Shown in pieces: positions 47,087 to 63,989 of a stretch of 64,000 nt of DNA. The notes beneath the pieces were generated by a model that was given only the letters and a program-made list of their open reading frames with translations, ran no database searches and was not told where the DNA came from. Both the position numbers and the translations under genes were made by a program. Position 1 is the stretch's first letter, and each line of letters begins with the position of its first letter. This DNA comes from Candidatus Babeliales bacterium (lineage in GTDB: Bacteria > Babelota > Babeliae > Babelales > JANWKD01): positions 1,273,193 to 1,337,192 of the forward strand of contig OY969622.1 of NCBI GenBank assembly GCA_963701665.1. Reading direction: 5' to 3'.

Positions 47087-48325
47087 ATGAAAAAAAGTAC
47101 AATTCTTTTATTAATTACGTTCATGTTTCTAACTACAGCGATGGAAGAACTGCCTGAAACTACGACAACCGAAGAACCGCCAGAAAAAATTGCAAAAACA
47201 ATTGAAAATCCGATCATACAAGAACCAGCATCATTACTATCGCAAGCATCACGACAAGCAATTGCCACCATTATGAATACGCTACCAGAAGAAATGACCC
47301 ACTATTTAACGACTATAGCCATCAATGAGCCAATTAATAAAAGTGGCAAACGTTGGCTGCATATGGCGCGAACGCCCGAAGATGTCTATAAAGCACTCGC
47401 ATTAGGCGCTAATGTAAATATTCTAACGAACAAAGATGAAACGCCACTTAATACTATACTTGCCAACGGCTACACTGACGCGGCAATTGCATTGGTCACT
47501 CATGGAAAGAATGTTAATCTTGCAACATATGATATATATGACACAACACCATTGCACAATGCTGCTTTTACCGGTAATGAAAAAATTATTGAATTATTAA
47601 TACCGGCATACGAAAGATTAGATATACTTGATTCCGCAGGTTTCACACCACTTTTCTATGCTATCTCCAATAACCCTTCTGTTGTTTCTTTTCTTATAGA
47701 AAAGGGAGAACGCGCGGACGAACTAAATACTAATCGTACAACCGCACTCCATGTAGCAGCTCAATTTAATCCTTCATTACTTCCATTACTTTTGGATCAC
47801 GGCGCTAAAATACTTATCAATGATCGGAATAATCGTGGACTCACTCCTCTCCATAAAGCTACATCTCTTGGCCGTGCTGATGGCGTTAGGATATTGCTCG
47901 AGAATGGCGCAGATCCCAATATACCCGATAATGACCAAAGAACACCTATTTTTTCCTCGATTGAAACAAATCTTACACCATTAAAATTATTATTGGCCAA
48001 CGGCGCCGATGTTAATATACGATCCAGCAAAGGAATAACAGTGCTTATGATTGCTGCGCACAATAATTATCATGCCGTTAAAAAATTGCTCAAAACAGGC
48101 AAAGTTACCACACTCAATGATAATAATACATTCAATAAAACAGCACTCTATTATGCCATCGAATCACAAAATCTAAAAACGGTTAAACTGTTGCTTGCAT
48201 CCGGTGCAAATGTACATCTAAATGAATACGATCTTGCATTTTCTCTTGAAAATGAAGCAATTCGCACTCTCATAAAAGATGCTTATTCTGCTCGTCAAAA
48301 AAAACTTTCCCTCCAAAATTTCTAG
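47087..48325 (+). CDS. Secreted ankyrin-repeat protein
   Basis: ...TTA|MEE; about 9 repeats (TPLHNAA, GFTPLFYA, TALHVAA, GLTPLHKA, LLENGADPN). Confidence 0.92.
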   Translation: MKKSTILLLITFMFLTTAMEELPETTTTEEPPEKIAKTIENPIIQEPASLLSQASRQAIATIMNTLPEEMTHYLTTIAINEPINKSGKRWLHMARTPEDVYKALALGANVNILTNKDETPLNTILANGYTDAAIALVTHGKNVNLATYDIYDTTPLHNAAFTGNEKIIELLIPAYERLDILDSAGFTPLFYAISNNPSVVSFLIEKGERADELNTNRTTALHVAAQFNPSLLPLLLDHGAKILINDRNNRGLTPLHKATSLGRADGVRILLENGADPNIPDNDQRTPIFSSIETNLTPLKLLLANGADVNIRSSKGITVLMIAAHNNYHAVKKLLKTGKVTTLNDNNTFNKTALYYAIESQNLKTVKLLLASGANVHLNEYDLAFSLENEAIRTLIKDAYSARQKKLSLQNF

Positions 48326-51562: not shown

Positions 51563-52852
51563 ATGATTTTAGCTTTTTTACTCGTATTCATTATTCATAC
51601 CGCTCTCGTAGGCATGGAACAAGAGAAAGAAAACGAATTACATGTGTGGTATGATTTTCAATGTGCTCCATCAACAAAAGCCCCTGACATAAAACAAGCG
51701 GCACATCATAAAGTTATTCCAGAGACTTTCGCTCATCATTATTTCCCTCAATGGGTAGAAATTACACTACAAGAAGGAACGGCCAATCGTTATAAGGCCG
51801 CAAGCAAAACTATTGCATGGACTACTGCAGAAAACCATCAAAGGTGTTATTATTTCAACAAAAAATTTGCAAAAAGCATACGTGAAATTGCTTTTAATAA
51901 ACCCATTGAGTTATTTGATATATCATCCAATGGGGAAAAATTGATAGTTGTTACGGGCAAAAATTTTTGCACAATATGGGATCTAAAAGAGCACAAGCAA
52001 ATTCAAAAAGATACCCTGACATCAGAAAACAAAACGCCAATTATTACGGCAGTACAATTTATTGATTCTAATTCCTGCCTTGCTGCCGCTGATGATCACA
52101 CATTCACGTGCTTCGCTTGTGATGGTACATCACAAAAATATTTTGCCCTCAACCATCATGACCCAACAGTAGCACTTTCAATAGATAATGTTATTAACAG
52201 GCACCATTGTTTTTTTGCTTACCACGCAAGTGGTGATGTCCATTATTATCACATGATGGATGATACAGAATATAACGATCTCATATACAAACTTGATGAA
52301 AAAATACCCCCATTCAATGCAATTCTATCAGCTAATGATAAAAATTGGATTGCACAGGATGAAAACAAAGGACTCTATTGCTTTACTCTTCAATCTGGCT
52401 CTCATTTTATTTTTGATACATTAAATTATTGTGGCACCTTAGTAGGAAAAACGTATAAAGGAACAATTCTTATATTCGAAGAATCTGAAGAATCTACCCA
52501 CGAACTTCCGAAATTAATTAATTTTTCTCTAAACACACGGAGAATACTTGATAAAATACCGCTTGCCAGAAACACAAAACCAGTTCCCCAAAAATTCTAT
52601 TCATCTCGAATAATACCTAAAGAGAATTGGCTTCCTCGCTTCTTAATTTATCAAGATAACCCAGCTTTTTTCACCTTATTGAAAAAGAAATCGCCATCGC
52701 CAGAACAATCAGTATGGCTTGCTCAATTTGCAGAAGCATCGAAAGCGCAGAACCACGCAGCAATAAACGACCTTTTAAATCATGAAATTTTTAAAAACCT
52801 GAGTCCTTCTACACAGGAATCATTAAAAGCGCTGTATGCACCTGAACATTAG
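51563..52852 (+). CDS. Secreted protein with degenerate WD40/beta-propeller-like region
   Basis: ...LVG|MEQ; ISSNGEKLIVVTGKNFCTIWDL, ITAVQF. Confidence 0.6.
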   Translation: MILAFLLVFIIHTALVGMEQEKENELHVWYDFQCAPSTKAPDIKQAAHHKVIPETFAHHYFPQWVEITLQEGTANRYKAASKTIAWTTAENHQRCYYFNKKFAKSIREIAFNKPIELFDISSNGEKLIVVTGKNFCTIWDLKEHKQIQKDTLTSENKTPIITAVQFIDSNSCLAAADDHTFTCFACDGTSQKYFALNHHDPTVALSIDNVINRHHCFFAYHASGDVHYYHMMDDTEYNDLIYKLDEKIPPFNAILSANDKNWIAQDENKGLYCFTLQSGSHFIFDTLNYCGTLVGKTYKGTILIFEESEESTHELPKLINFSLNTRRILDKIPLARNTKPVPQKFYSSRIIPKENWLPRFLIYQDNPAFFTLLKKKSPSPEQSVWLAQFAEASKAQNHAAINDLLNHEIFKNLSPSTQESLKALYAPEH

Positions 52853-52902: not shown

Positions 52903-54270
52903 CTATGAATAAATAATTTTAGTTGGTTGAAATACAGGATATCCTTTATAGAAGCTGCCTCCGGGCAAAAAATAAAGAGCAATCGGCGTCACAATACTTC
53001 CTCCTAATGCAAGCCATTTTGCAATAAATTCAGCTGATTCTAATTCAATAATAGTTTTACGTTTCAGTTGTGCTCCGGCTAATTGCATACTTTTCGTAAC
53101 AAAATATGCTGTTAATTTTATAACATTTTCTATCCATGCATGTTTGCCGCCATGGTTTGTCTGGCTTGGACCAAATGAACTAAGCCCCAATAAGCCTCCT
53201 GAACATAATCCAATGAAAGCTGCTAATGATATTTTTTTTGCAAAAAATGGATAATGCATTCTTTTTTCAAAAAAATTTGGTTCCACAGCATCTTGAAGAA
53301 CGCTCTTACACTCTTGTGGAAGAGTAGCTGAAAATTGTAACTCGCCATTTTCTCCTGCTTTAAAGGACGAAATACACTCAATAGGATTATTATATAATGC
53401 AATCGTTATCTGAATATTAGACATGCATCTGGGAAAAATTACATTTTTTACGTTGCTAGAAATTACTCTGAGTATTCTTATATTTGGAAAATGTTGTAAT
53501 AAAGATGCAATATCTAATTTAATAAAATTATTACGTGAAAGATCTAGGAAATCAACACTGTCTTTATTTGGTTTCAAAGATATTCCATATAATGTGGATA
53601 AGCCCTCACCAGCCAAAGAAATCATATTACTAAAACGCTGGGCTCTTTCATGATCACGCATTAAATCAGCTACGGATCGTATACCACAACGCTGAAGACA
53701 TTTATGAACTTTTTTATCATATTCAGCAAATTCATCAAAATGAAGAGCCATTTTTTGTATTGATTCTTCAGGGAGCCCAAAATAATCAGCCGCTTTCATA
53801 ACCGGCTTAATATTTTCTTGAGGAATAACATGCATGGTTATATCATCATTGGCCACATCAATAACAGTTTCAACAATGTCTCTTCTTGCAATATCACGAT
53901 CAACTAACCTGGCAAGATCAATGTAAGAATCTGGAGGGCAAAAATAATCCTCTCTTGTGTCATTAATACCATCAAAGCTTCCTTCTTTGAGCACATACTG
54001 TTCCTCAAAACAGTAAAAAAAAGGAACTTTTCTTGTTATATCGCTCTTAAAATCATCTTCATCAGAAATATTAAATATATTTTGAGCGGCATTTAATTTT
54101 TGCGCACGATCTAGATCAACATGAAAAAAGTTGCCATCGGCATCTTTCATGGTAATTTTCCTAGCCATTTCTTGCGGTTCACCATGCAGAAGTTGCGCAA
54201 TAAGTTCTGAATTCATTGCATGAGTAAAAAGAGATGTACTAAGAAATAATAAAAGAATGATATTCTTCAT
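52903..54270 (-). CDS. Secreted leucine-rich-repeat protein with BTB/Skp1-like segment and C-terminal hydrophobic helices
   Basis: ...THA|MNS; VMKAADYFGL; ISLAGEGLSTL, LDLSRNNF, ALYNNPI. Confidence 0.6.
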   Translation of the reverse strand: MKNIILLLFLSTSLFTHAMNSELIAQLLHGEPQEMARKITMKDADGNFFHVDLDRAQKLNAAQNIFNISDEDDFKSDITRKVPFFYCFEEQYVLKEGSFDGINDTREDYFCPPDSYIDLARLVDRDIARRDIVETVIDVANDDITMHVIPQENIKPVMKAADYFGLPEESIQKMALHFDEFAEYDKKVHKCLQRCGIRSVADLMRDHERAQRFSNMISLAGEGLSTLYGISLKPNKDSVDFLDLSRNNFIKLDIASLLQHFPNIRILRVISSNVKNVIFPRCMSNIQITIALYNNPIECISSFKAGENGELQFSATLPQECKSVLQDAVEPNFFEKRMHYPFFAKKISLAAFIGLCSGGLLGLSSFGPSQTNHGGKHAWIENVIKLTAYFVTKSMQLAGAQLKRKTIIELESAEFIAKWLALGGSIVTPIALYFLPGGSFYKGYPVFQPTKIIYS

Positions 54271-55482: not shown

Positions 55483-55622
55483 CGTAGCACGCGCACACTT
55501 AATTTTTGCATAACTCAGCTTATGCGTAATTCTTCACTTTAATTATTTATTTAAAAACGTATCCCTGCATTTTTTATCAAAATGGCATGGATTATAACTT
55601 AATCTTCCCACTAAGAGGTATT

Positions 55623-56360
55623 ATGAACTCTGTTTTACTTCGTATAAAAAACATTCAAAAAAAATATGGTGATAAAACTGTTTTAAAAGGAATTAATCTT
55701 GATATTTTCAAAGGTGAAATTCTGAGCCTGCTAGGCGTCAACGGTGCAGGAAAAACGACGCTATCCTCGATAATTGCCACATTGCATCCTGCAACACAGG
55801 GTGACATTGAATACGAGGGTAGCTCAATTTATCACAACATTCCTGACTTTCGCTTAAAGTTAGGATATTGCCCGCAAAAACCAAATCTCAACATGATGCT
55901 CACTTTGGAACAAAATTTATTTTTTGCAGGAAAATTTTATGGGCTCTCGCGCGCAACTATCCAAGCACGCATCAATGAACTTGCTCAAAAATTAGGCTTG
56001 CAAGAATATCTGCAACAAAAAGCATCGGTTTTATCAGGTGGGTATATGCAACGATTCATGATTGCACGCAGCCTTATTCATAATCCTGAATTTTTGATTT
56101 TGGATGAACCGACAGTGGGTCTTGACCCTCACATCAGAAGAAATTTGTGGGACATAATCAAACAATTAAAACATGATGGCATCACAGTATTATTGACTAC
56201 GCACTATCTTGATGAAGCAGAAAAACTTTCTGATCGCGTGTGTATTTTGGATGCAGGACAAATAAAACTTATTGATACGCCCGACAAGCTTCTGCATGAT
56301 TTCAAGCAAAAGAATCTCGAAGATGTCTTTATTGAATTGCTCAAAGCTGGCCAACAATAA
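55623..56360 (+). CDS. ABC-2 type (DrrA/NodI-like) exporter ATP-binding protein
   Basis: GVNGAGKTT, LSGG, LDEPTVGLDP, LTTHYLDEAE; likely start ATG 55623 after AGAGGT. Confidence 0.92.
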   Translation: MNSVLLRIKNIQKKYGDKTVLKGINLDIFKGEILSLLGVNGAGKTTLSSIIATLHPATQGDIEYEGSSIYHNIPDFRLKLGYCPQKPNLNMMLTLEQNLFFAGKFYGLSRATIQARINELAQKLGLQEYLQQKASVLSGGYMQRFMIARSLIHNPEFLILDEPTVGLDPHIRRNLWDIIKQLKHDGITVLLTTHYLDEAEKLSDRVCILDAGQIKLIDTPDKLLHDFKQKNLEDVFIELLKAGQQ

Positions 56361-56614: not shown

Positions 56615-57409
56615 ATGAAACATACAAACATATGGTCATACGCAACAGTATGCAAAGAACTCATCTATGCAGATTTATTAGGATTCAAACAAACATTTTT
56701 AGACAAACTCATTGATGTAAGTATATGGGTTATCTTAACCATGATCGTCACCAGTTATATCATGCCGTATTTTGGCTTGTCACATGATTTTGGCGTATTT
56801 CAATTAGCCGGCATTATTGCTGCTATCGGACTTTTTGAATTGTATGCAAGCGCCGTCGAATTTGTTTCAGATCTTGAAGGTAACCGCTGCATAAATTACA
56901 GTTTAACTTTGCCAATACCTTCATGGTTAGCTCTTATAAGCAAAGCCACTTATTATTTCATCATTTACTTCATTTTATCTGTCCTTATGCTTCCTATAGG
57001 CAAATTAACCTTATGGAGTCAATTTAATCTTGCCCAGATTAATTACTTCAAATTATTCTTGAGCTTTATTTTTCAAAATATATTCTATGCCTGCTTTGTT
57101 TTATGGATAGCCAGCATTGTTGATAACATGAATAAATTTGGCAGCGTCTGGGCACGTTATATTTTTCCCCTGTGGTTCATGGGCGGATTTCAATTTTCAT
57201 GGGTTGCACTGCATCACGTGTTACCGTATGTTGCCTATATAAACTTACTCAATCCCATGATATACATCACTGAAGCAATGCGTATTTCTTTATTAGGGCA
57301 AGATGGCTATCTTAATTTCTGGCTCAGCTTGTTAGCAATTGCATTTTTTTCAGTAATTACCTTATGTGTTGGCATCAGAAATTTAAAACGGCGACTTGAT
57401 TTTGTATAA
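56615..57409 (+). CDS. ABC-2 type exporter permease
   Basis: About 6 TM helices; LLNPMIYITEAMR motif; follows the ATPase. Confidence 0.88.
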   Translation: MKHTNIWSYATVCKELIYADLLGFKQTFLDKLIDVSIWVILTMIVTSYIMPYFGLSHDFGVFQLAGIIAAIGLFELYASAVEFVSDLEGNRCINYSLTLPIPSWLALISKATYYFIIYFILSVLMLPIGKLTLWSQFNLAQINYFKLFLSFIFQNIFYACFVLWIASIVDNMNKFGSVWARYIFPLWFMGGFQFSWVALHHVLPYVAYINLLNPMIYITEAMRISLLGQDGYLNFWLSLLAIAFFSVITLCVGIRNLKRRLDFV

Positions 57410-57427: not shown

Positions 57428-58711
57428 TTAACGGCTTTCTCCTACCACCCCACCATATTTCCGTTTCATAAAATAACCCCGTGCTTTAAGATCTTTATAC
57501 AAGTTTTTGCACTGTTGATCGTCCTTATCACAATATAACTTAGGAGAGCCTTCAATAAAGTCTGGATCAAAATTTTGTTTAACAAGGGATCCCTTGTTAA
57601 AAACAGTTACAGCCGCACTTGCACATTGGTATCTATGGCTAATAAAGCTTATGTTACTGGTATATTCAAGAGGAATCTCCAGTTCCTTTTTATTATTTCG
57701 CATTAAAAGAAATTGACCCGTGTCTCTTCCGCAGTCCCAAGCTCGAAAAATCGGGGTAGCATTAGCATGAATAAGAATATTTTCGTTCTTCTCAGGGAAA
57801 GCTCGAACCTTATCAGAATCATTAAACTTAAATAGGAAGCCATTGGAAAGTAGCATGCCTTGATTTGACGTTAAAAGGCTATACATCCGCTTCAACGTTC
57901 CAAAAGGATCAACAAGATGCCGAAGCGTCCAATTAGAAACAATCAAATCAACCTTTCCTTTGAGGTCAAAACCTCTTTTTGAAAGCTCTTCATCAATGTT
58001 TTCTATTTTAAACCGATTCAGTTGATAAAGAGTAACGTGACCCTCTTGCTGTACTATTTCTTCGCATTCTTTTCCACCAGTAACACTAAAAATATGAAAT
58101 CGTTTTCCGCTTTTTTTACATGCTTTACTTTGCAAAATGCGCATAGCATGCCTTCCCCAGCCGCCTCTTGCACAACCAACATCTATGATATAAACATCCT
58201 CTTTTTCCTGATTCTCAGAAGCAAGATGCTTAAGTAACAATTTATCATTAATGCCAAGCAATCCATAAAAATCGAAGCCATTATATAACCATTGATCATC
58301 GCCCGTATCTTTGTTCAGTTCAAATGCCTTATCTGCTTCAGCCTGAATTTGCGATGGTCGATCACCAAGCACAGCATTTTCTTCTTTTTCTATAGCAGAT
58401 TGGTATTTTTTCCAATCCGCAGCACCCACACCTAAGGCCACACCAAGAATAACAGGTCCCTTTATATTAAGAGCTTTTGAGGCTCTATTATTAGTTCTCA
58501 TAAAACGTGTATTAAAACACGATGATTTTAAAGGCTTATGATATGTGTTAGTAAAACGCGTAGTTGAAAGTGCATTTCCTCTAAAAAATCCCCTATTAAA
58601 GGCCATCCCCCGATATTTCATAGGATACAGAGAAAAACATAGAAATAATAAGCTAAAAAACAGTAATTTTTTACCAATCAAGAAAGACTCCATTTCAATT
58701 TCATTAACCAA
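57428..58711 (-). CDS. Secreted class I SAM-dependent methyltransferase-like protein
   Basis: IIDVGCARG motif I; VDLIVSNWTLRHLVDP..LKRMYSLL; signal peptide ...LYP|MKY. Confidence 0.75.
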   Translation of the reverse strand: MVNEIEMESFLIGKKLLFFSLLFLCFSLYPMKYRGMAFNRGFFRGNALSTTRFTNTYHKPLKSSCFNTRFMRTNNRASKALNIKGPVILGVALGVGAADWKKYQSAIEKEENAVLGDRPSQIQAEADKAFELNKDTGDDQWLYNGFDFYGLLGINDKLLLKHLASENQEKEDVYIIDVGCARGGWGRHAMRILQSKACKKSGKRFHIFSVTGGKECEEIVQQEGHVTLYQLNRFKIENIDEELSKRGFDLKGKVDLIVSNWTLRHLVDPFGTLKRMYSLLTSNQGMLLSNGFLFKFNDSDKVRAFPEKNENILIHANATPIFRAWDCGRDTGQFLLMRNNKKELEIPLEYTSNISFISHRYQCASAAVTVFNKGSLVKQNFDPDFIEGSPKLYCDKDDQQCKNLYKDLKARGYFMKRKYGGVVGESR

Positions 58712-61943: not shown

Positions 61944-63338
61944 ATGATTTCATTACTTCAGACAATCTGTAAACCTTTATTTGGCACCTTTGAGCGTGAA
62001 GAATTTAAGAAATTTTTGCGCATGGGTCTGACCTTCACTTGCATTATTGGTTCATATTGGACGTTGCGCACGTTAAAAAATGCGTTATTTTGCAGCCTCG
62101 TTGGCGGTGCTTATTTACCTCTAGCTAAAACGGCATCCATCATTTGTTTAGTGCCACTCGTCATGCTCTATACAAAATTACTCGATATGTTTTCACGCGA
62201 AAAAATGTTTTACATGCTTTCAGCAGCATACGCTATTATCACGGTACTTTTTGCAGTTTTGTTTATAAGTCCTATCGGCATCGGAACCTCAGCTGACATC
62301 TGCGCACGCAGTGGTATACTATTTTATGCAACACAAACCTTAGCATTTTTATGGTATGTGTTTGTTGAAAGCTACGGCTCATTAATTATCGCACTCTTTT
62401 GGGCCATAGCATCAGATATTACGTTGCCTGATTCAGCAAAAAAAGGATTCTCACTCGTTGTTGCTATTGGACAAATTGGCGGTATCGCGGGGCCATTCTT
62501 ATTGACACGCTTGCCGCGTTTCTTGGGTTTTGCAACGAGCGCCATTTCCGTTTTTGCATGTGCATTTTTCATTGTTGGATCAATCCTACTTTTAAAGAAT
62601 TTCTTTAGTGCAACCCCACAAAATCTTTTACAATCATTCCATGGAAAAAATGAAGCACAAGAAAAAGGTGAACAAGAACCAGGATTTTTTGAAGGTCTAA
62701 AATTATTAGTCAAACATGGTTACTTGCTTGGCATTTTTGCGGTGCTTTTCTTTTTTGAAGTCATCGTCACCGTGTTTGATTTTCACTTTCAAACGCTCGC
62801 AGCCACGCACTACACCGGCACTGCACTCGCTGAATTTCAAGGTCTTTATGGCACCCTCGTTAACGTAGTAACACTCGTATGCCTTTTATGCGGCATTGGC
62901 AACATCACGCGTTTACTCGGCGTTGGTGTTTCTTTAGCGCTCGTTCCTCTTATTTTTGGCCTCGCAGTTTTTGGCTTCACATCGTTTAATAGTCTTATGT
63001 TCTTGCTTGCTTTAATGGTCAGCTCAAAAGCAATTAACTATGCATTAAATGGCCCTGCATTAAAACAACTTTACATTCCAACAACGCACGACGTTCGCTT
63101 CAAGTCACAGGCATGGATCGAAACATTTGGTTCACGCGCCTCAAAAGAAGCGGGCTCATTATTTAACTTGCTTTTACTACCATTGCAAAAAAGCTTGGGC
63201 GAAATTGCTGGCAGAGCGCGCCATGTTGTGCTCAGTTCTTATTTAGGATTTATACTTGTAGCTGCATGGTTTTTAATTGCGCTCTATTTAGGAAGAACCT
63301 ATAAGAAAGCAATTGATAATGATAAAGTTGTTTGTTAA
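61944..63338 (+). CDS. NTT/TLC-family nucleotide transporter (ATP/ADP translocase-like)
   Basis: YWTLRTLKN, FVESYGSLIIALFW, KAINYALNGP..QLYIPT..RFKSQAWIETFGSR; many TM helices; GAGGAG RBS. Confidence 0.88.
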   Translation: MISLLQTICKPLFGTFEREEFKKFLRMGLTFTCIIGSYWTLRTLKNALFCSLVGGAYLPLAKTASIICLVPLVMLYTKLLDMFSREKMFYMLSAAYAIITVLFAVLFISPIGIGTSADICARSGILFYATQTLAFLWYVFVESYGSLIIALFWAIASDITLPDSAKKGFSLVVAIGQIGGIAGPFLLTRLPRFLGFATSAISVFACAFFIVGSILLLKNFFSATPQNLLQSFHGKNEAQEKGEQEPGFFEGLKLLVKHGYLLGIFAVLFFFEVIVTVFDFHFQTLAATHYTGTALAEFQGLYGTLVNVVTLVCLLCGIGNITRLLGVGVSLALVPLIFGLAVFGFTSFNSLMFLLALMVSSKAINYALNGPALKQLYIPTTHDVRFKSQAWIETFGSRASKEAGSLFNLLLLPLQKSLGEIAGRARHVVLSSYLGFILVAAWFLIALYLGRTYKKAIDNDKVVC

Positions 63339-63545: not shown

Positions 63546-63989
63546 TTATTTGACATGAGAGTAATTAAAGCTTGGTGAGTCCCCACCACTGGCTCTAAAC
63601 TCCGCATAAAAACTATTCATATCACTCACTTTGCTATAATTAAAAGAAGGTGAATCTGTTCCGCCGGAAGCTTTAAATTCCGCCCAAAAACTATTAAAAT
63701 CATGTACCTTGCTGTGATTAAAACCAGGCCCGCCGCAACCACTGGCTCTCCACTCAGCGTAAAAACTAGTAAAGAGTGTAGAAGGCGATGGTTTCGGTTT
63801 TTTGACGACAGCTTTCTTTGACAGTCCTGCATAAATTGGTCCAGGAGCTGGCTTTGGTTTTGGTTTGACAACGGCTCTACGTACGAGGGTTTGTTTAGCT
63901 CGTCTTACAGGAGCAGCTTTTTTCTTTTGCATTGCGCTTAACTGAAAATTCGCACATAAAACAACTATCACAAATAATTTTTTATACAT
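63546..63989 (-). CDS. Secreted basic protein with three ~25-aa C-terminal repeats
   Basis: ...LSA|MQKKK; three copies of SF[YW]AE[WF][RK]ASG..P.FN.S.V. Confidence 0.7.
   Translation of the reverse strand: MYKKLFVIVVLCANFQLSAMQKKKAAPVRRAKQTLVRRAVVKPKPKPAPGPIYAGLSKKAVVKKPKPSPSTLFTSFYAEWRASGCGGPGFNHSKVHDFNSFWAEFKASGGTDSPSFNYSKVSDMNSFYAEFRASGGDSPSFNYSHVK

Follow-up and report, generated by a model that had tools for sequence, protein, structure and literature searches.

Introduction

Mitochondrial matrix presequences are N-terminal, 10–70 amino acids long, positively charged and poor in acidic residues and form an amphipathic helix (PMC9041937, PMC13684279), and the MPP site carries Arg at position −2 and an aromatic residue at +1 (PMC9041937). 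Presequence-like leaders are expected to evolve cheaply, since about one quarter of random 10-mers function as presequences (Lemire 1989, as cited in PMC13684279). In the bipartite presequences of the intermembrane space, such as those of cytochrome b2, cytochrome c1 and Gut2 (PMC9041937), a basic, acid-free part is followed by a hydrophobic sorting segment and a soluble domain.

Among bacterial effectors, Ats-1 of Anaplasma phagocytophilum is a type IV secretion substrate with a cleavable presequence at its translated N-terminus, through which it is imported by the host machinery into the mitochondrial matrix or inner membrane (PMC2824752). In rust and oomycete effectors, a signal peptide is followed by a transit peptide or an NLS; these proteins are eukaryotic, are secreted through the ER and are mostly targeted to the chloroplast or the nucleus (PMC5353544). 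Within the Babelota (Dependentiae), an expanded host mitochondrion encloses the cultured Chromulinavorax, which carries signal peptides on 44% of its proteins, and a mitofilin-like protein was the sole candidate named in that paper for mitochondrial reshaping (PMC6561590). Babelota secretomes contain many signal-bearing ankyrin and orphan proteins and an ATP/ADP translocase, and the passages of these descriptions considered here mention neither an organelle address behind a signal peptide nor a methyltransferase family of the kind reported below (PMC6561590, PMC4378268). Likewise, no organelle address behind a Babelota signal peptide was found by a term search of PMC12172432, or in the openly accessible articles searched.

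The window analysed in this study is a stretch of 64,000 nucleotides from the genome of a Candidatus Babeliales bacterium, and one of its genes encodes a predicted methyltransferase with an unusual leader. The protein resembles Ats-1 in being a bacterial effector candidate with a presequence-like part, import being demonstrated for Ats-1 and predicted for the protein described here. In contrast to Ats-1, the segment is preceded by a predicted Sec signal, whose removal would be needed to expose it, and VirD4 (PF02534) was not found in the genome, which is 93.6% complete. With the rust and oomycete effectors it shares tandem labels, a secretion signal followed by a putative host-organelle mimic, as well as the occurrence of both organelle-like and nuclear-like addresses, whereas it uses bacterial Sec and its putative address varies inside one enzyme family. 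The arrangement of basic acid-free part, hydrophobic segment and soluble domain corresponds to that of cytochrome b2, cytochrome c1 and Gut2, but the amphipathicity is not above that of shuffled sequences, the patch is short and an IMP-like site was not found. The genome shares with the described Babelota secretomes the many signal-bearing ankyrin and orphan proteins and the ATP/ADP translocase.

Coding Sequence and Secretion Routes

The window lies on a single 1.34-Mb contig with 37% GC. Residue numbers given below follow the public gene call (P0002, 421 aa), which starts at ATG 58693. The true start is probably TTG 58681 rather than ATG 58693, as judged from the sequence, because a GGAG motif is located 6 nt upstream of this TTG. 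The gene is flanked by a convergent ABC-2 permease gene and a divergent ORF of 433 aa, and genes encoding an ATP/ADP translocase, ankyrin proteins and beta-propeller proteins lie nearby. No conserved neighbourhood was observed at 45 homologue loci, where the ABC-2 permease neighbour recurred at one locus only and the other matches were generic ABC ATPase, NUDIX and translocase genes. No independent sequencing run was found that spans the leader or the junction between leader and domain. The features of the protein are listed in Table 1.

Table 1. Features of the leader-bearing methyltransferase gene, with positions in the window.
Feature	Residues (P0002)	Position	Strand	Basis or remark
Whole ORF, longest form		57428..58711	−	From TTG 58711, 427 aa
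Predicted Sec signal peptide	1–24	58622..58693	−	Sequence, heuristic
Presequence-like segment	25–78	58460..58621	−	Composition, AlphaFold
Gly/Ala-rich hydrophobic patch, 14 aa	79–92	58418..58459	−	Candidate stop-transfer or membrane anchor
Charged linker helix	93–107	58373..58417	−	AlphaFold helix 91–103
Family N-terminal lid (RP..VQ..F, W.YNG...Y) and class I SAM-methyltransferase core	108–335	57689..58372	−	
Motif I, SAM-binding glycine loop	169–180	58154..58189	−	Family alignment
Family-specific C-terminal beta/alpha extension	336–421	57431..57688	−	AlphaFold, fold matches

Signal peptides, which were called throughout by our own heuristic and not by SignalP, were predicted in 515 of the 1227 ORFs of the genome. 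Parts of a T2SS were identified, and the T2SS was the only secretion system found. TatC (PF00902) was not found in the 93.6% complete genome, the control search being positive in 11 of 14, and FlhA/SctV was not found either. A Tat route for the protein was rejected, since there is no RR within residues 1–92 and TatC was not found. T2SS substrates exit in a folded state, an observation that speaks against a mitochondrial address. In Babela, the T2SS is the sole secretion system and growth takes place in a vacuole (PMC4378268), the latter also being an observation against such an address.

Anatomy and Composition of the Leader

The signal of P0002 has a KK n-region and an L/F-rich h-region, ends directly ahead of Met25 and was modelled by AlphaFold as a helix over residues 2–21. 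By the heuristic, it shows the features of a Sec (SPase I) signal, namely a basic n-region, a hydrophobic h-region and a small residue before the cleavage site. For the segment behind it to form the N-terminus, cleavage would have to take place ahead of Met25, as predicted. This segment consists of Met and 53 further residues (54 aa; R7, K5, N7, F6, T6, S4, A4, D/E 0) with a charge of +12, and residues 28–79 are disordered in the AlphaFold model (pLDDT < 50). The first acidic residues past the signal fall in the linker.

A preliminary description made from the sequence had pointed to a basic segment of about 54 residues without Asp or Glu, and this was confirmed. Behind the h-region, 73 aa follow without an acidic residue, the longest such run among the 515 signal-bearing ORFs of the genome; in the 474 of these with at most one TM, the run has a median of 9 and a 99th percentile of 46. 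Given a D+E frequency of 0.13 in the secretome, an acid-free leader of 68 residues, as in this protein, has a probability of about 8e-5 per protein. The basic residues are also shifted towards Arg, with R/(R+K) of 7/12 in the segment vs 0.32 in the secretome.

The order of signal peptide, 54-residue segment, hydrophobic patch and methyltransferase domain that had been described was likewise found, from the sequence, weak Pfam matches and fold matches together. The further statement that this layout matches a mitochondrial presequence with an inner-membrane stop-transfer held for composition and was not clearly borne out by the finer features. In none of six combinations of window and length did the hydrophobic moment of the segment exceed that of its shuffled versions (p 0.11–0.67), with maxima of 0.56 in the first 20 residues (p 0.37) and 0.79 at 39–49 (p 0.11). 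There is one R-x-F in residues 25–78, and shuffles yield such sites in about 45% of the members of the leader class defined below. The patch, GPVILGVALGVGAA, has a mean Kyte-Doolittle value of 2.1 and is followed by D-W-K-K; its residues are uncharged, it is bounded by Asp, and it was modelled as coil up to residue 90. IMP cleavage prefers A-x-A, and a pattern search found no A-x-A-acidic site after the patch, which may still serve as an uncleaved anchor. Since the match is compositional, the word established, used in the preliminary description, overstates it.

No homologue of the leader was found in its own genome, in the protein collection (64 candidates) or in 261 genomes of the phylum. 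In the phylum search, 14 other genomes matched weakly (E up to 0.05), and 11 weak-match loci that were inspected proved to be unrelated or non-coding. Against PDB chains the best match was not significant (E 0.32), and the leader of homologue P0024 gave no usable feature match in the ESM Atlas.

The Methyltransferase Domain and Its Family

The core was modelled by AlphaFold with a pLDDT of 96.4. The Pfam matches were weak and under the curated cut-offs (Methyltransf_23, E 1.4e-5), and no NCBIfam match was obtained. The fold matches were class I methyltransferases, tied at Z of about 10–12 with about 10–17% identity, including OxaG (5w7k), TmtA (5egp), Coq5 (4obw), METTL6 (8p7b) and PmtA (8ys9) at Z 10.7–11.7, 10–14% identity and rmsd 3.6–4.3 over about 175–188 residues. 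Foldseek also matched the class I fold, and the ESM Atlas features of P0024 agreed. According to the model, the domain is a class I SAM-dependent methyltransferase fold, with methyl transfer itself predicted. Three PDB searches and one viral search returned tied generic matches only, and because the fold matches are tied at Z 10–12, no substrate can be read from them.

The protein shares the seven-strand Rossmann-like core and motif I with the enzymes of the Methyltransf_23/11/31 clan and differs from them in its family-specific lid and C-terminal extension, with no match standing out. The extension was modelled confidently to about residue 410, and the fold matches hardly cover it. In motif I, D171 and G177 are nearly invariant and G173 is invariant in 64 sequences, the glycine being invariant in 122. 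In class I methyltransferases, an acidic residue ending strand 2 binds the SAM ribose. Strand 2 of the protein ends with S203-x-T205-G206 (S-x-T-G-G), and E209, which follows it and is invariant in the 64 sequences, may substitute for this acid.

The family is without a name and comprises 71 close members; with E up to 0.001 as the limit, it extends to 807 clusters. It was found in 12 of 201 phylum genomes, and a search of a genome from the same genus did not find it. Among the homologues with a named source are Ca. Dependentiae and Babeliales, and homologue records are also labelled Rickettsiales, Coxiellaceae, Rhabdochlamydiaceae, Verrucomicrobia and Oligoflexia, while plasmids and viral contigs gave no match. 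Ankyrin fusions were found in 14 of the 29 long homologues scanned. This distribution and the ankyrin architecture would fit a host-directed effector.

Leaders across the Family

Leader types were assigned by a fixed rule in 179 family proteins, 158 of which had a scorable leader. No signal was called in 68 of these; the 90 signal-bearing homologues had short (46), other (21), basic-plus-hydrophobic (13, two of them mis-called signals) and NLS-like (10) leaders. Trees were built without 13 partial rows of the 179, and leader types were mapped onto a tree of the 85 cores with the highest scores, rows under 255 bits being left out.

Basic-plus-hydrophobic leaders were observed in 10 of the 32 rows of the clade containing the protein (SH-aLRT 98) vs 0 of 53 rows outside, or 2 of 53 if the two mis-called signals are retained, whereas NLS-like leaders were observed in 0/32 rows of this clade vs 9/53 outside. 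The corresponding p values (2e-5 and 0.012) both overstate the contrast, since kin are not independent. The basic-plus-hydrophobic label is scattered within the clade and needs 12 changes on the tree; the leaders of the sister protein P0003 (66% identical) and of P0005, the relative that comes next, are short and acidic. Among 16 leaders compared, two near-copy pairs could be aligned and no others, and one low-depth contig from a relative diverges at the domain boundary. Judged from the tree and the alignments, the leader is a swappable module that is gained and lost, outside the core of the enzyme family.

It had been expected that homologues keep the acid-free segment while its sequence drifts. 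This was borne out for 11 members including the protein itself, which keep a basic, acid-poor segment and a G/A-rich hydrophobic patch that can be aligned between near-copies only, but most homologues with a signal do not have it (those with short, other and NLS-like leaders, P0003 among the relatives without it). The character of the segment is thus kept under sequence drift in one third of one clade, and the expectation fails family-wide.

The second patches of these leaders have 31% G+A and a Kyte-Doolittle value of 1.9, vs 9% and 2.6 for 506 signal h-regions, indicating by their higher G+A and lower hydrophobicity that they are not copies of the signals of these genomes. On this composition, an origin of the patch as a remnant copy of the type of signal used in the genome was rejected. 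An A-x-A followed by an acidic residue was present after the patch in 6 of the 11 basic-plus-hydrophobic members, the protein described here belonging to those without it.

Methionine Directly after the Signal Peptide

Predicted cleavage sites with a small residue followed by Met were observed in 215 of 490 signal-bearing ORFs in the genome of the protein (G000), and in 173/429 (G130), 65/291 (G049) and 61/140 (G194) signal-bearing ORFs in tiles of three other genomes. At residues 15–32, this pair was found in 39% of 1350 signal-bearing proteins vs 8–9% in control windows. An alternative start at the post-signal Met was rejected by the missing SD-like motifs, which were present ahead of 3 of the 215 such Met codons vs 123 of the 215 signal starts. 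Pro at position −1 occurred in 14 of 213 proteins with Met directly after the signal (Met+1 proteins). In 137 of these 213 proteins, Met is followed by E, Q, D or N, which is the NatB pattern of eukaryotic N-termini; in the protein described here, Met25 is followed by Lys.

In a sample of 150 of the 153 signal-bearing ORFs in G000 1–381,000, Met+1 was observed in 9/10 ankyrin proteins, a WD40 protein and a DnaJ protein (11/12), vs 0/6 envelope proteins (T2SS C, secretin, solute-binding protein, OmpA/Pal, BamD and PBP), a contrast with p 0.0004 in which the ankyrins are paralogues and not independent. The export signal and the effector status proposed in the preliminary description are supported by this pattern of eukaryote-like proteins and by the ankyrin fusions of the family.

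Presequence-Like Leaders on Other Secreted Proteins

A first, loosely defined class comprised 87 basic, acid-poor proteins of 1317 signal-bearing proteins. In this class, R-x-F was found in 18 vs 13.0 (p 0.083) and the R-3 motif in 3 vs 1.5 (p 0.15), and cytoplasmic controls in the same test were enriched for the motif (42 vs 28.9). A narrower class, set by composition alone after the null result of the loose class and including paralogues and orthologues, was defined by Met+1, at least 3 Arg, at least 5 Arg+Lys and at most 2 acidic residues in 40 residues. It comprised 19 of the 499 Met+1 proteins of four genomes vs a mean of 8.3 and a maximum of 18 in pooled shuffles (200). R-x-[FY] was present in 14 of the 19 leaders vs 8.6 in shuffles (p 0.0125), with flat controls (7/22 vs 7.2 and 34/95 vs 33.1). 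A tighter motif, chosen post hoc, was found in 8/19 members vs 1.6, the protein described here being without it. Bipartite leaders were not enriched among Met+1 proteins (16/436 vs 18/729).

An NLS-like motif was found genome-wide in 17 of the 499 Met+1 proteins vs a shuffle mean of 9.6 and maximum of 17; this excess was discounted and not counted, because cytoplasmic proteins showed a similar one (34 vs 21.6).

Several individual proteins show the same kind of leader. The gene at G000 643188–644450 encodes a signal-bearing protein with a leader that starts with Met and is rich in Arg and Ser, and with a weak J domain at its C-terminus. Two relatives, G130 and G194, contain three homologues of this J-domain protein, whose leaders cannot be aligned but are likewise Arg/Ser-rich and contain motifs of the R-x-F type. 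In a homologous pair shared by these two relatives, R-T-Y-S/V-T is retained where the otherwise different leaders end, and the G130 proteins L108:1953 and L131:1735 display the full bipartite layout on unrelated cargo. Some Met+1 proteins have the presequence-like part without any patch. Among 35 proteins picked by eye for basic/hydrophobic leaders, Pfam searches identified ankyrin, M48 peptidase, GH1 and J domains, and none of the 35 matched a mitochondria-specific Pfam family. The original claim, confined to one gene, is widened by these unrelated secreted proteins, and presequence-like leaders are likely a class that extends beyond it, as far as their composition and motifs indicate.

Proposed Function and Alternative Explanations

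Our preferred explanation, to which we assign somewhat less than an even chance, is that the protein is an effector directed at the host by a protist parasite of the Babelota type, and that its leader serves as an address for mitochondria. From the anatomy and comparative patterns observed above, we infer the following trafficking steps and activity. The protein would be exported by Sec, for which the signal is seen in the sequence, and cleavage by signal peptidase would create a new N-terminal Met. It would be released by the T2SS or in outer-membrane vesicles and would reach the host cytosol, crossing any vacuole membrane by some route. TOM/TIM23 would then recognise the Arg-rich, acid-free 54-residue segment as a presequence, and the patch rich in G/A would arrest the protein in the inner membrane or anchor it in the outer membrane, so that the enzyme domain would face the intermembrane space or the cytosol and methylate a host substrate with host SAM. 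Because relatives bear NLS-like leaders or ankyrin repeats, this substrate would most likely be a protein or an RNA that the host has in more than one compartment, rather than a metabolite confined to mitochondria.

The protein might instead be a delivered effector whose leader is a generic tether, a moderately hydrophobic signal-anchor with a positive flank, to the vacuole that contains the bacterium, the ER, a lipid droplet or another host membrane, with no presequence import involved. We consider this unlikely, although it would account for the ordinary amphipathicity of the segment, for the M48 peptidases and GH1 hydrolases with similar short basic-plus-G/A leaders, and for the family members P0013, P0017, P0029, P0030 and P0048, which have just 4–12 residues ahead of the patch, too short for a typical presequence. 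A tether would not need an acid-free, Arg-rich segment of 54 residues, and the Met+1 proteins that have a presequence-like part and no patch, together with the enrichment of R-x-F/Y, also argue against it.

It is improbable that the leader is a recent, neutrally drifting spacer and that the enzyme acts where its leaderless relatives do, probably in the host cytosol. The AT-rich genome, whose A/T-rich codons favour K, N, F and I, is consistent with a spacer, and so are the missing leader homologues in the protein collection and phylum genomes, the closest relatives without such a leader, the low-depth contig diverging at the domain boundary and the patchy occurrence of the gene. A drifting spacer, however, would not be expected to have the longest acid-free run of the secretome, nor more Arg than Lys, contrary to AT bias, and the two-part layout recurs in one clade only, without sequence homology.

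There is likewise little probability that the enzyme methylates the bacterium's own glycan or lipid in the periplasm, at the cell surface or in the vacuole lumen, with segment and patch forming a second bacterial signal or anchor: the patch ends with G-A-A before Asp, a Tat-like signal has a long basic n-region and a G/A-rich h-region, and the fold matches are mostly small-molecule methyltransferases, but the segment has no twin-arginine pair, TatC was not found, Met+1 is present in the protein and missing from seven of the eight signal-bearing ORFs at G000 1,121,776–1,140,693, and the family has ankyrin fusions, NLS-like leaders and members in other host-associated bacterial lineages.

Beyond the mitochondrial address of the single protein, it is possible, though doubtful, that the Babelota Sec/T2SS secretome uses a modular address code, in which this protein would be the inner-membrane form of a new effector family joining in mitochondrial remodelling of the Chromulinavorax type. 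Cleavage would give a eukaryote-like Met N-terminus with an exchangeable cassette directly behind it, this cassette being a matrix presequence, a presequence plus stop-transfer, a bipartite NLS or nothing. Such cassettes would direct unrelated enzymes to host mitochondria, nucleus or cytosol, and the methyltransferase family of effectors would be common to protist endosymbionts.

If the mitochondrial address is real, a bacterial Sec signal and a host presequence would work in series, an arrangement not found described for bacteria in the literature searched, and large-scale delivery of Sec/T2SS substrates into the host cytosol would be implied. For the mitochondrial remodelling by Babelota, a short list of proteins addressed to mitochondria would then also be available for testing. 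If only a tether or a spacer is present, the protein would be one more orphan secreted enzyme. The effector-like methyltransferase family without a name, with its about 800 clusters, is flagged here.

Secreted proteins with presequence-like or bipartite leaders

The leader of the secreted J-domain protein at L034, in the genome containing the window (G000), looks more clearly like a matrix presequence than that of the target methyltransferase. This presequence-like leader is followed by an ankyrin-like middle and a weak C-terminal J domain (HPD), and homologues were found at three further loci (listed in the table below). In the secreted M48 peptidases, the leader is short and basic with a G/A-rich hydrophobic part, a layout that we take to be reminiscent of the mitochondrial M48 protease OMA1.

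In the related genome G130, bipartite leaders (a basic segment plus a hydrophobic patch) were found on two proteins, L108 and L107, sharing one type of C-terminal domain. No Pfam family matched this domain, which 78 of the 261 genomes of the phylum encode, its copies frequently being arranged in tandem. Since H-G and Y/F-x-N motifs are conserved in this domain, inspection by eye suggests an ADP-ribosyltransferase-like fold. A secreted member of the MavL-like ADP-ribosylhydrolase family (L061:15755-17248) lacks a Met directly behind the signal (Met+1).

The long leaders of the small membrane proteins from G130 and G194 (another related genome) differ, yet each closes with R-T-Y-S/V-T followed by acidic residues. 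The 689-aa protein, with no Pfam match, has an acid-free start containing Arg and many hairpin-like, G/A-rich hydrophobic segments.

Across G000, several Met+1 ankyrin proteins have K-R-K clusters resembling NLSs among the first 30 residues of the mature chain. In the genome-wide count, NLS-like motifs occurred in 17 of 499 Met+1 proteins pooled from four genomes against a shuffle maximum of 17, a borderline excess.

Coordinates of the features
Feature	Position	Strand
J-domain protein, secreted	L034:192-1451 (G000 643188-644450)	minus
Homologues of the J-domain protein	L065:1501-2721; L066:1333-2241; L070:1093-1962	
M48 peptidases, secreted, tandem	L032:547-1590; L032:1594-2607; L037:669-1676; L127:36-1001 (G130)	
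Bipartite-leader proteins	L108:1953-3995; L107:17373-19790	
Small membrane proteins, mutually homologous	L143:4178-4879 (G130); L202:2827-3756 (G194)	
689-aa secreted protein	L031:1995-4061 (G000 152991-155060)	minus
Met+1 ankyrin proteins with K-R-K clusters (examples)	L044:17802-19127; L045:1295-3094; L053:9855-11282	
Ankyrin, beta-propeller and weak LRR proteins, each with a signal	window 47087-48325; 51563-52852; 52903-54270	
ABC ATPase, then ABC-2 permease, both convergent with the target	window 55587-56360 and 56615-57409	
TLC ATP/ADP translocase	window 61944-63338	plus
147-aa secreted Met+1 protein	window 63546-63989	minus

Genomic context and split family members

The ABC ATPase ORF ends 254 nt ahead of the ABC-2 permease, and the permease (61% identity) also adjoins the target-family homologue in L001. 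The first half of the 147-aa protein is Lys/Pro-rich and acid-free, its acid-free run being the second-longest among signal-bearing ORFs of the genome, and its C-terminal repeats read F-Y/W-A-E-F/W-R/K-A-S-G. Several members of the methyltransferase family in other assemblies (L019, L075, L078 and L081) are split by frameshifts or stops, reflecting either decay or sequencing error.
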